A DNA stretch of 52,288 nucleotides from Escherichia phage vB_EcoM_Bp10. This document shows positions 28,616 to 30,270 of the stretch, one piece after another; positions within the stretch are counted from its first letter, which is position 1; each line of letters opens with the position of its first letter. The translations under genes were made by a program, and so were the position numbers. The stretch lies in sequence record MN122072; one strand, written 5' to 3'. The notes beneath the pieces were generated by a model. It was not told the origin of the DNA and searched no databases. It saw only the letters and a list, made by a program, of their open reading frames with translations.

Positions 28616-29170
28616 ATGCTATCATTCAAAGTTCTTGCACTTCTGACAGCTCTAGTTCACATCAACGCCCCAGCTTCGGTTGGGGCAGTGAATTCTGCTA
28701 TTACAGATTTTGCAAGTCATTCTTATTTAAATGGAAGTCTGAAACTATCTTCTTCACAACGCAAAGAGCTAGAATGCTACACTAAAGTTATCTGGTATGA
28801 AGCTCGCGGAGAAGACAAACATGGAAAGATTCTGGTAGCTAATGTCGTCCGTAATAGAACCAAGTTCGGGAAGCCATTCGCTAACACCGTTTGTGATGTT
28901 GTCTATCAACGCAATCAATTTGCATGGACAAGAGAAGCAAAGAAGAAGAATGCTCAATGGAAGCATGTAGCAAAGATTAATTATGCCACAGAACAACAAC
29001 AAGTTCTGGACACCATTAATGTTGCAATCTCTTTTGTATTATTTAATCAACCCTCTGTCACCAAAGCAACCCACTTTTGTACAGCATCGGAGAAGTGCAA
29101 CTTCAAGAATGTCAAAGGTTTGGGACGTTACGGTGGCCACAAATTCTATGAGTATCTAGGAAATCTGTAA
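28616..29170 (+). CDS. secreted cell-wall hydrolase, SleB/CwlJ family (endolysin candidate)
   Basis: N-terminal signal-like [24 protein letters not shown]; core VIWYEARGE...VVRNR...QFAW matches the Hydrolase_2 signature. Confidence 0.7.
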
Positions 29171-30270
29171 TGGCTTACACTACCTTTTCACAAACCAAGA
29201 ATAACCAACTACTAGAGCCAATGTTCTTTGGTCAGAACGTTAACGTTGCTCGATATGACCAACAGAAGTATAGCATCTTCGAGAAGTTAATCGAAAAGCA
29301 GTTATCTTTCTTTTGGCGACCTGAAGAGGTTGATGTTAGCCAGGACCGAATTGACTATGCTGGTCTACCTGAATGCGAGAAGCACATCTTCACCAGCAAT
29401 TTACGATACCAAATCCTGCTTGATTCCATTCAGGGACGTGGACCAACCACAGTTTTGCTACCAATTGTGAGCATTCCTGAGCTGGAAACTTGGATTGAAA
29501 CTTGGTCATTCTCAGAAACAATTCACTCCCGCTCTTACACGCATATTATTCGTAATATTGTTACAGACCCGAGCGTAATTTTCGACGAAATTGTAGAGAA
29601 TGAGCACATTAAAATGCGTGCAATCGGCATCTCCCAATATTATGACGAGCTTCAACATCTAACTTCCATGTGGCATCTGCATGAAGATAAAGTTTCTCTT
29701 CGTGAGCTTAAGAAGAAGCTGTATTTATGCCTCATGTCCATTAATGCACTGGAAGCAATTCGCTTTTATGTCAGTTTTGCTTGCTCATTTGCCTTCGCTG
29801 AACGCAAGTTAATGGAAGGAAATGCCAAGATTATTCGCCTAATTGCTCGTGATGAAGCACTCCATTTGACTGGAACTCAACACATGCTGAACCTTCTTGC
29901 AAGCGGTGTTGACGACCCAGAAATGGCAGAAATTGCTAAAGAATGTCGCCAAGAATGCCAACTCATGTTCGAAAATGTGGCCCAACAAGAGAAAGATTGG
30001 GCTGATTATTTGTTCAAAGATGGCTCAATGATTGGCTTAAACAAGCAAATTCTGTGCGGATATGTGGAATATATCACGAATATTCGTATGCAAGCGGTTG
30101 GATTGGATGCTCCATTCAAAGGTGCTACTAACCCGATTCCTTGGATTAACGCATGGTTGAATTCGGATGCTGTACAAGTTGCTCCACAAGAAACGGAGAT
30201 TAGTTCGTACCTTGTCGGACAAATTGACTCCGAAGTTGACACCAATGCTCTGGGCGGATTTGAGTTGTAA
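29170..30270 (+). CDS. nrdB: ribonucleotide reductase class Ia beta subunit
   Basis: [11 protein letters not shown]...[18 protein letters not shown]...[16 protein letters not shown]...[13 protein letters not shown]; di-iron ligands and C-terminal tail present. Confidence 0.9.

Follow-up and report, generated by a model that had tools for sequence, protein, structure and literature searches.

This report concerns a gene for the small, radical-generating (beta) subunit of class Ia ribonucleotide reductase (RNR), nrdB, in Escherichia phage vB_EcoM_Bp10 (sequence record MN122072). The stretch analysed, called the window below, comprises 52,288 nucleotides. The gene directly follows the endolysin gene, and a terminator-like hairpin lies shortly after its stop (Table 1). 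Elsewhere in the window there is a small open reading frame (ORF) whose C-terminus copies the C-terminal tail of the large (alpha) subunit, NrdA; it is discussed after nrdB.

The Pfam family PF00268 (ribonucleotide reductase small chain) matches the translated nrdB over profile positions 7-281 of 281 (E = 2.3e-48; 165.5 bits, cut-off 33.6), and the best matches in the PDB are the R2 chains of Escherichia coli (E ~1e-199). The BLASTP alignment with E. coli NrdB, taken from an annotated chromosome, is collinear from Met1 to the last residue and contains 300/376 identities (80%), or 82% when only aligned residues are counted; there are 66 substitutions, and the sole gap is one of 10 residues after phage residue 173. 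The original prediction, made from the letters alone, of a match over nearly the full length except for a short internal deletion is thus correct. It also stated that the protein is far closer to the host's than typical phage subunits are; indeed, identity to E. coli NrdB is only 45-55% for the NrdBs of T4-like phages and of most others. Host-like NrdBs (60-80% identical) are likewise present in about 64 further phage records.

The phage protein shares with E. coli R2 (PDB 1RIB, 1MXR, 7AI8) the iron ligands D84, E115, H118, E204, E238 and H241 and the radical Tyr122, which are identical in the NrdB of the window and in that of the GJ1 type. The radical-transfer residues W48, D237, E350 and Y356 are all kept, and so are the residues of the hydrophobic pocket. 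In E. coli, beta docks on alpha through its peptide Y356-L375, which has been co-crystallised (PMC11447812); the C-terminal 20 residues of the phage protein are identical to the E. coli NrdA-docking peptide at 15/20 positions, including L370, F373 and L375. Between the phage copies of the gene, the ratio of nonsynonymous to synonymous divergence (dN/dS) is 0.02-0.07 with dS up to 0.79, and the gene is under strong purifying selection. The ORF encodes a class Ia NrdB with its catalytic residues intact and is maintained as a working gene. It differs from the E. coli gene in the deletion, the substitutions, the lack of an adjacent nrdA or yfaE, and the phage codon usage.

The residues deleted in the phage form a beta-hairpin in the AlphaFold2 model of an E. 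coli-type NrdB (strands 174-178 and 181-185, local pLDDT 85-90), and the model of the phage NrdB has no strands at this site; since the underlying alignment was shallow, the two models are of low overall quality (mean pLDDT 54.6 and 61.3), and they were used for the hairpin region only. The NrdB of the GJ1 subclade is short of just 4 residues at the same site, which suggests that a peripheral hairpin element was trimmed stepwise.

Table 1. Coordinates of the features discussed (positions of the window unless an accession is given)
Feature	Position	Strand	Basis
nrdB, class Ia RNR beta (radical-generating) subunit, 366 aa	29170..30270	+	ORF, ATG start; Pfam; BLASTP
10-codon deletion relative to bacterial nrdB, between phage codons 173 and 174	29686..29691	+	alignments
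Endolysin, last gene before the genome end in sister genera; marks the nrdB insertion point	28616..29170	+	PF07486
Ribosome-binding site AGGAAAT and TAATG overlap (endolysin stop/nrdB start)	29158..29170	+	sequence read
Terminator-like hairpin followed by a T run, 23 bases past the nrdB stop	30293..30318	+	consensus scan; pattern match only
46-aa acidic ORF, C-terminal copy of the redox-active tail of NrdA	45144..45284	+	alignment; functional link inferred
NrdB and 49-aa tail ORF of Serratia phage PCH45	MN334766.1 124783..125886 and 111024..111173		

The window corresponds to the complete genome, circularly permuted, of a phage of the genus Carltongylesvirus (Chaseviridae; the group of phiEcoM-GJ1, ST32 and flopper). 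In a megablast comparison with the full genome of phage flopper, 93% of the window is covered at 93-97% nucleotide identity; window bases 52288 and 1 map side by side on flopper (41579/41578), and the termini of flopper itself fall within the window (~41613/41708). Since the ends of the window abut, the window is the whole genome, and an adjacent nrdA just outside it, which had been named as a possible refutation, cannot exist. The DNA of nrdB is 96.5% identical to that of Escherichia phage vB_EcoP_Bp7 and other Carltongylesvirus phages of 51-56 kb. An NrdB at least 90% identical to that of the window occurs in exactly 44 phage records, and exactly 44 carry the RNA polymerase of the genus type (at least 90% identity). 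The bacteria from which these close relatives were obtained are E. coli, Shigella or Yersinia, which agrees with the enterobacterial host originally proposed. One record with a Carltongylesvirus-type nrdB (90.9% aa identity), RNA polymerase (92%), 46-aa ORF and Rz-like gene is named 'Staphylococcus phage Pel53' (PP952070.1); the host given for it, Staphylococcus hyicus, very probably reflects mislabelling.

No NrdA accompanies the gene. A tblastn search of the genome with E. coli NrdA gave chance-level matches only (E >= 1.1). A Pfam scan of 80 further plus-strand ORFs (at least 45 aa; for the ORFs in 1..29170, the best 25 of 36 family matches) contained no RNR large-subunit, ATP-cone, thioredoxin, glutaredoxin, NrdI or ferredoxin domain; it did turn up ThyX, dUTPase, a T7-like RNA polymerase, primase/helicase, DNA polymerase, ligase, exonuclease, and structural and lysis proteins. 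The claim that the window lacks NrdA is therefore upheld, and the genome does not encode a complete class Ia RNR (nrdA and nrdB together). The subunit had been expected to pair with host NrdA or with the product of a gene elsewhere; the latter falls away in a complete genome, and pairing with host NrdA is the only option available.

We consider it likely that the gene encodes a functional beta subunit, taken long ago from an nrdAB operon of the Enterobacterales type, which forms a hybrid RNR with host NrdA. An ancestor of Carltongylesvirus would have inserted the captured nrdB after the endolysin gene at the right end of its genome. In an infected cell, freshly synthesised phage beta2 would form its di-iron tyrosyl-radical cofactor and, through its host-like C-terminal tail, dock on host NrdA (alpha2); the hybrid alpha2-beta2 enzyme would then raise or sustain the synthesis of deoxyribonucleoside triphosphates (dNTPs), alongside the phage ThyX and dUTPase. 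The protein identity, the intact catalytic and docking residues, the lack of a phage alpha, the age of the gene and the purifying selection on it point to such a hybrid complex, which would be catalytically active and of benefit to the phage. There is a precedent in the poxviruses, whose R2 subunits combine with host R1 into functional hybrids; R2 is the only subunit encoded by most chordopoxviruses (PMC2900304). Judged by its sequence, the phage would belong with such viruses, as it has beta only, the subunit is host-like, and its R1-binding C-terminus is kept.

Several points weigh against this interpretation. The docking tail has five changes relative to E. coli NrdB (D368N, D369A, S371G, N372G and Q374E). 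The phage has no YfaE-like ferredoxin for cofactor maintenance, a tblastn search of the genome with YfaE having found nothing better than E = 0.039. The gene ends the late lysis cassette and overlaps the endolysin stop, which is odd for a product of the replication phase. A benefit from the proposed hybrid would, moreover, presuppose that beta is the limiting subunit in infected E. coli.

The most serious alternative, which we nevertheless regard as rather unlikely, is that phage beta is regulatory and not catalytic: it could enter mixed dimers with host NrdB, or act as a competitor for host NrdA, and thereby retune RNR or escape its control, for example, the dATP feedback exerted through the alpha4beta4 ring. 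Mixed dimers are plausible at 80% identity; besides, the beta-hairpin is deleted, and 15 positions invariant across 19 bacterial NrdBs are altered in every phage copy (including Q306G, R253A and D369A). However, each catalytic and radical-transfer residue has been kept under strong purifying selection. As to the feedback, I297 of beta plugs into a dATP-induced pocket of alpha in the alpha4beta4 ring (PMC11447812), and this key contact is conserved in phage NrdB; nothing points to feedback escape, and that variant is unsupported.

The age of the gene decides another question. It had been presented as nearly host-identical and recently captured, which would mean a transfer from the current E. 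coli host. Neither description is supported. Against 5,426 complete E. coli genomes, nucleotide identity of the phage nrdB is at most 71%, and the proportion of synonymous differences from E. coli nrdB (pS) is 0.83, that is, saturated. The G+C content at third codon positions is 0.415, compared with 0.638 in E. coli nrdB and a mean of 0.418 +/- 0.041 in 47 other phage genes. At the protein level, the NrdBs of other Enterobacterales are 88-95% identical to that of E. coli, and the Vibrio protein is 80% identical to it; for the phage protein, counted over aligned residues, the figures are 82% with E. coli, 77.6-80% with other Enterobacterales and 77% with Vibrio. The phage subunit and Vibrio NrdB are separated from E. 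coli NrdB by about the same distance. The gene occupies one site in all 44 Carltongylesvirus records, and its copies in the two subclades of the genus differ by dS ~0.78. The three sister genera examined (Faunusvirus, Sabourvirus and Suwonvirus) lack it at the syntenic site; both flanks of the gene are homologous to phage Faunus, with ~1.1 kb extra between them in the window. Presence in the whole genus and absence at this site in sister genera indicate a single insertion at the base of the genus, before its radiation.

In favour of a recent capture one can cite the slightly higher protein identity to E. coli than to other Enterobacterales, and 16 residues shared with E. coli but found in only a minority of other Enterobacterales, the opposite pattern occurring at 4. 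Yet a recent transfer implies unsaturated synonymous sites, host-like codons and patchy presence, and what is found is saturation, phage-like codons and fixation at one site; the saturation refutes it, the tree described below also sets the phage clade apart, and we regard a recent capture as very improbable. A mosaic produced by gene conversion with host nrdB was considered as well and rejected: sliding-window identity reveals no host-identical block, nucleotide identity being uniformly ~71%.

The enterobacterial type of the gene is better founded. Of 18 sites fixed differently in Enterobacterales and Vibrio, phage NrdB agrees with Enterobacterales at 12 and with Vibrio at 3. In a neighbour-joining tree the phage clade is monophyletic (200/200 bootstraps) and lies outside crown Enterobacterales, beside Pantoea phage Survivor (163/200); this placement is possibly due to long-branch attraction, since the site patterns favour an Enterobacterales, perhaps Escherichia-like, origin. 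We conclude that the source was an nrdB of Enterobacterales, possibly an Escherichia-like one, that the capture is old, and that divergence has since been faster than in bacteria; co-adaptation of phage NrdB to an E. coli-type NrdA is possible. A stretch resembling nrdB, with 60-80% nucleotide identity to the phage gene, also occurs in 202 E. coli plasmid records; SSU5-like phage-plasmids with NrdA may account for it.

It is as improbable as a recent capture that nrdB is a passenger with no role for the phage. It does lie at a genome end and module boundary, a frequent lodging place of horizontally acquired genes, and the sister genera examined do without it at this site; but the low dN/dS, the retention in 44/44 genomes of phages of E. 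coli, Shigella and Yersinia, and the fully ameliorated codon usage contradict such a reading.

The weakest alternative, that a phage NrdA exists outside the window or is too divergent to be recognised, we consider most improbable: tblastn and Pfam are blind to a partner of wholly novel fold, and the family matches for the ORFs in 1..29170 are the best 25 of 36, but the window closes on itself against flopper, every ORF of at least 500 aa has another assignment (terminase, a 1241-aa virion structural protein homologous to flopper gp39, RNA polymerase, primase/helicase and DNA polymerase), no NrdA is present in the RefSeq annotation of flopper, and in a survey with hidden Markov models phiEcoM-GJ1 is one of two class Ia phages with nrdB only (Dwivedi et al. 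2013, PMC3653736).

The finding of nrdB as such is already known, being an annotated gene of a described genus whose missing partner was tabulated in 2013. The same nrdB is found in the same place in phiEcoM-GJ1 (gp75), ST32 (ORF79) and flopper (gp26), with protein identity of 100% for flopper and 90-99.7% for other Carltongylesvirus; there is no difference of substance, and the window represents another isolate of the genus. In Carltongylesvirus the gene has been described as that of the RNR beta subunit (PMC6266442) and is so annotated in GenBank.

The layout of the region bears on expression. In phages Faunus, 4HA13 and PM1 the endolysin gene is followed directly by the regulatory region or the genome end. 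The ribosome-binding site of Table 1 is the Shine-Dalgarno sequence also listed for ST32 ORF79 (PMC6266442). This layout implies that nrdB is probably both co-transcribed and translationally coupled with the late lysis genes. A promoter scan around nrdB gave no more sites than in shuffled sequence, and the timing of expression is therefore judged from position. Between nrdB and the RNA polymerase gene, window positions 30530..30680 contain three direct repeats of ~28 nt (CAATATT…ATTAATGAGACTC-like), which are partly kept in Erwinia phage Faunus. Their annotation in flopper is repeat_region, and they probably represent early promoters or elements of the genome end.

Among other viruses, the closest parallel in strategy is provided by the poxviruses, which likewise have a small subunit only, highly similar to that of the host. 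Vaccinia F4 binds host R1 via its C-terminus, the hybrid R1-R2 enzyme supports replication, and F4 is needed for it (PMC2900304). The differences are that the host is eukaryotic and that the poxvirus hybrid was demonstrated experimentally, whereas for the phage it is inferred.

The RNR of T4-type phages is also a class Ia enzyme that boosts dNTPs for phage DNA synthesis. These phages, however, encode both NrdA and NrdB and their own thioredoxin NrdC, and their NrdB is only ~50-55% identical to that of the window. T4 RNR subunits are not known to cross-react with E. coli subunits.

A second, independent case of a host-like NrdB without NrdA, paired with a tail protein, is the Serratia jumbo phage PCH45 (MN334766.1). 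Its NrdB is 80.3% identical to that of E. coli, and it has a 49-aa ORF ending ...KCESGACEI; in its complete 212,807-bp genome no NrdA was detectable with three different NrdA queries. PCH45 is unrelated to Carltongylesvirus, and its NrdB is full length, without the hairpin deletion, and only 74% identical to that of the window; its nrdB is probably a separate acquisition. Among jumbo phages with host-like NrdB, including Agricanvirus, the whole-genome check for NrdA was made for PCH45; no jumbo phage with host-like NrdB is among the 41 phage records with an NrdA at least 60% identical to that of E. coli. Two further jumbo phages have a host-like nrdB and no nrdA within 5 kb: Pantoea phage Survivor (PP885733.1, fetched locus 4995..6379), in which a ferredoxin gene follows whose product is YfaE-like (63.6% aa identity to E. 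coli YfaE), and Erwinia phage RAY (NC_041973.1, fetched locus 5001..6134), in which a homing endonuclease gene follows.

The 46-aa ORF (MDFDALDNLDFGAAEEAIEELKKKQDEEAIVPGEGDNDCSSGACAI) was located via a weak tblastn match of the NrdA C-terminus. It ends ...GEGDNDCSSGACAI, and E. coli NrdA ends ...SIQDDGCESGACKI; the last 20 residues of the ORF align co-terminally with the last 20 of E. coli NrdA (QDDLVPSIQDDGCESGACKI), with 9 identities that include both redox cysteines (C754 and C759) and the terminal isoleucine (…DCSSGACAI and …GCESGACKI, respectively). The local score of this alignment is 51, compared with 28.2 +/- 4.0 in 2000 shuffles; over the search space the initial match has E = 1.1 and is not significant alone. 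As in alpha tails, in which the Cys pair is CX2C or CX4C, the pair stands in the last ~10 residues after an acidic, probably disordered stretch. The ORF is free-standing, with no NrdA-like sequence upstream and hence no attached alpha barrel, and is a copy of the tail and not an NrdA.

This ORF is present in exactly the 44 Carltongylesvirus records, with at least 95.7% aa identity, and is better conserved than NrdB or the RNA polymerase; its pN/pS is ~0.03-0.10. Sister genera have homologues at the syntenic position, immediately before the Rz/Rz1 spanin genes, with the endings ...NDCGDACKI in Faunus, ...GDCDGCKI in Myduc and ...SDCDGCKI in Y2; these homologues were found by synteny, as tblastn with the 46-aa ORF or the Rz-like protein does not reach these genera. 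Tails of class I alpha subunits are mostly CXXC, with a minority of CX4C as in E. coli (PMC9669993).

Similar endings are found more widely. A scan of IMG/VR for DCDGCKI-stop gave 20 loci: 8 are ends of true NrdAs (763-784 aa where complete), each of which, L031 excepted, has nrdB as a neighbour within the flank fetched; 10 are small ORFs, of which 9 are acidic and one is not; and 2 are proteins of 124-145 aa with another N-terminal domain. The corresponding scan for CESGACKI-stop gave 29 loci, with 20 NrdA-type ends, two 61-aa ORFs, and 7 ORFs of 54 aa from Erwinia/Dickeya jumbo phages of ~260 kb. These 7 finish with DGCESGACKI, which is the decapeptide of E. coli NrdA without any change. This jumbo-phage family occurs in 58 phage records, and its tail alternates between CXXC and CX4C. 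Altogether, free-standing alpha tails sit on at least 4 different N-terminal scaffolds and switch between CXXC and CX4C as true NrdA tails do. In the literature searched, we found no description of free-standing phage proteins that copy the NrdA tail.

These small proteins, then, copy the alpha tail, and partnership with an orphan NrdB is one possibility. We tentatively suggest, while thinking it less probable than its opposite, that the phage acts on host NrdA with two parts, the host-like beta and the 46-aa tail protein, and that tail proteins are a recurrent phage class. The tail protein would act on the thioredoxin/glutaredoxin-dependent re-reduction of the enzyme, either as a shuttle in trans or as a competitive decoy. 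Against two cooperating parts speak the sister Chaseviridae genera, which have the tail protein without nrdB, and the position of the 46-aa ORF, which adjoins the spanin genes and not nrdB. Yeast Sml1 is a small protein that interferes with the C-terminal tail of R1 at the step where the Cys pair regenerates the active site. It may be a functional analogue, with the difference that Sml1 does not copy the tail sequence and the phage ORF does.

Some observations concern the surroundings of this ORF. The Rz/Rz1-like spanin genes directly downstream of it (45293..45662, plus strand) lie in the early/replication region, ~16 kb from holin and endolysin, and this arrangement is kept across Chaseviridae genera. 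Directly upstream of the ORF is the single tRNA gene (45019..45115, plus strand) of the unusual length of ~92-97 nt, which ARAGORN reads as tRNA-Leu (CAG); the homologous feature in the phiEcoM-GJ1 record is given as tRNA-Arg that 'may contain an intron'. The tRNA gene is set in two stretches of ~1 kb (44002..45019 and 45662..46470) that contain no long ORFs.

The NrdB finding alone adds little to what has been published; its value is that it offers a clean bacterial counterpart of the small-subunit-only strategy of poxviruses, and phage NrdB should be directly testable with NrdA of E. coli, the best-studied RNR. In our view the ORF that copies the tail is the part worth following up and may matter more than nrdB. 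If it is true that tail proteins act on host RNR or its reductants, they would represent a new viral route to the control of dNTP supply, and would offer ready tools for probing that step of the class I RNR cycle which is understood least.

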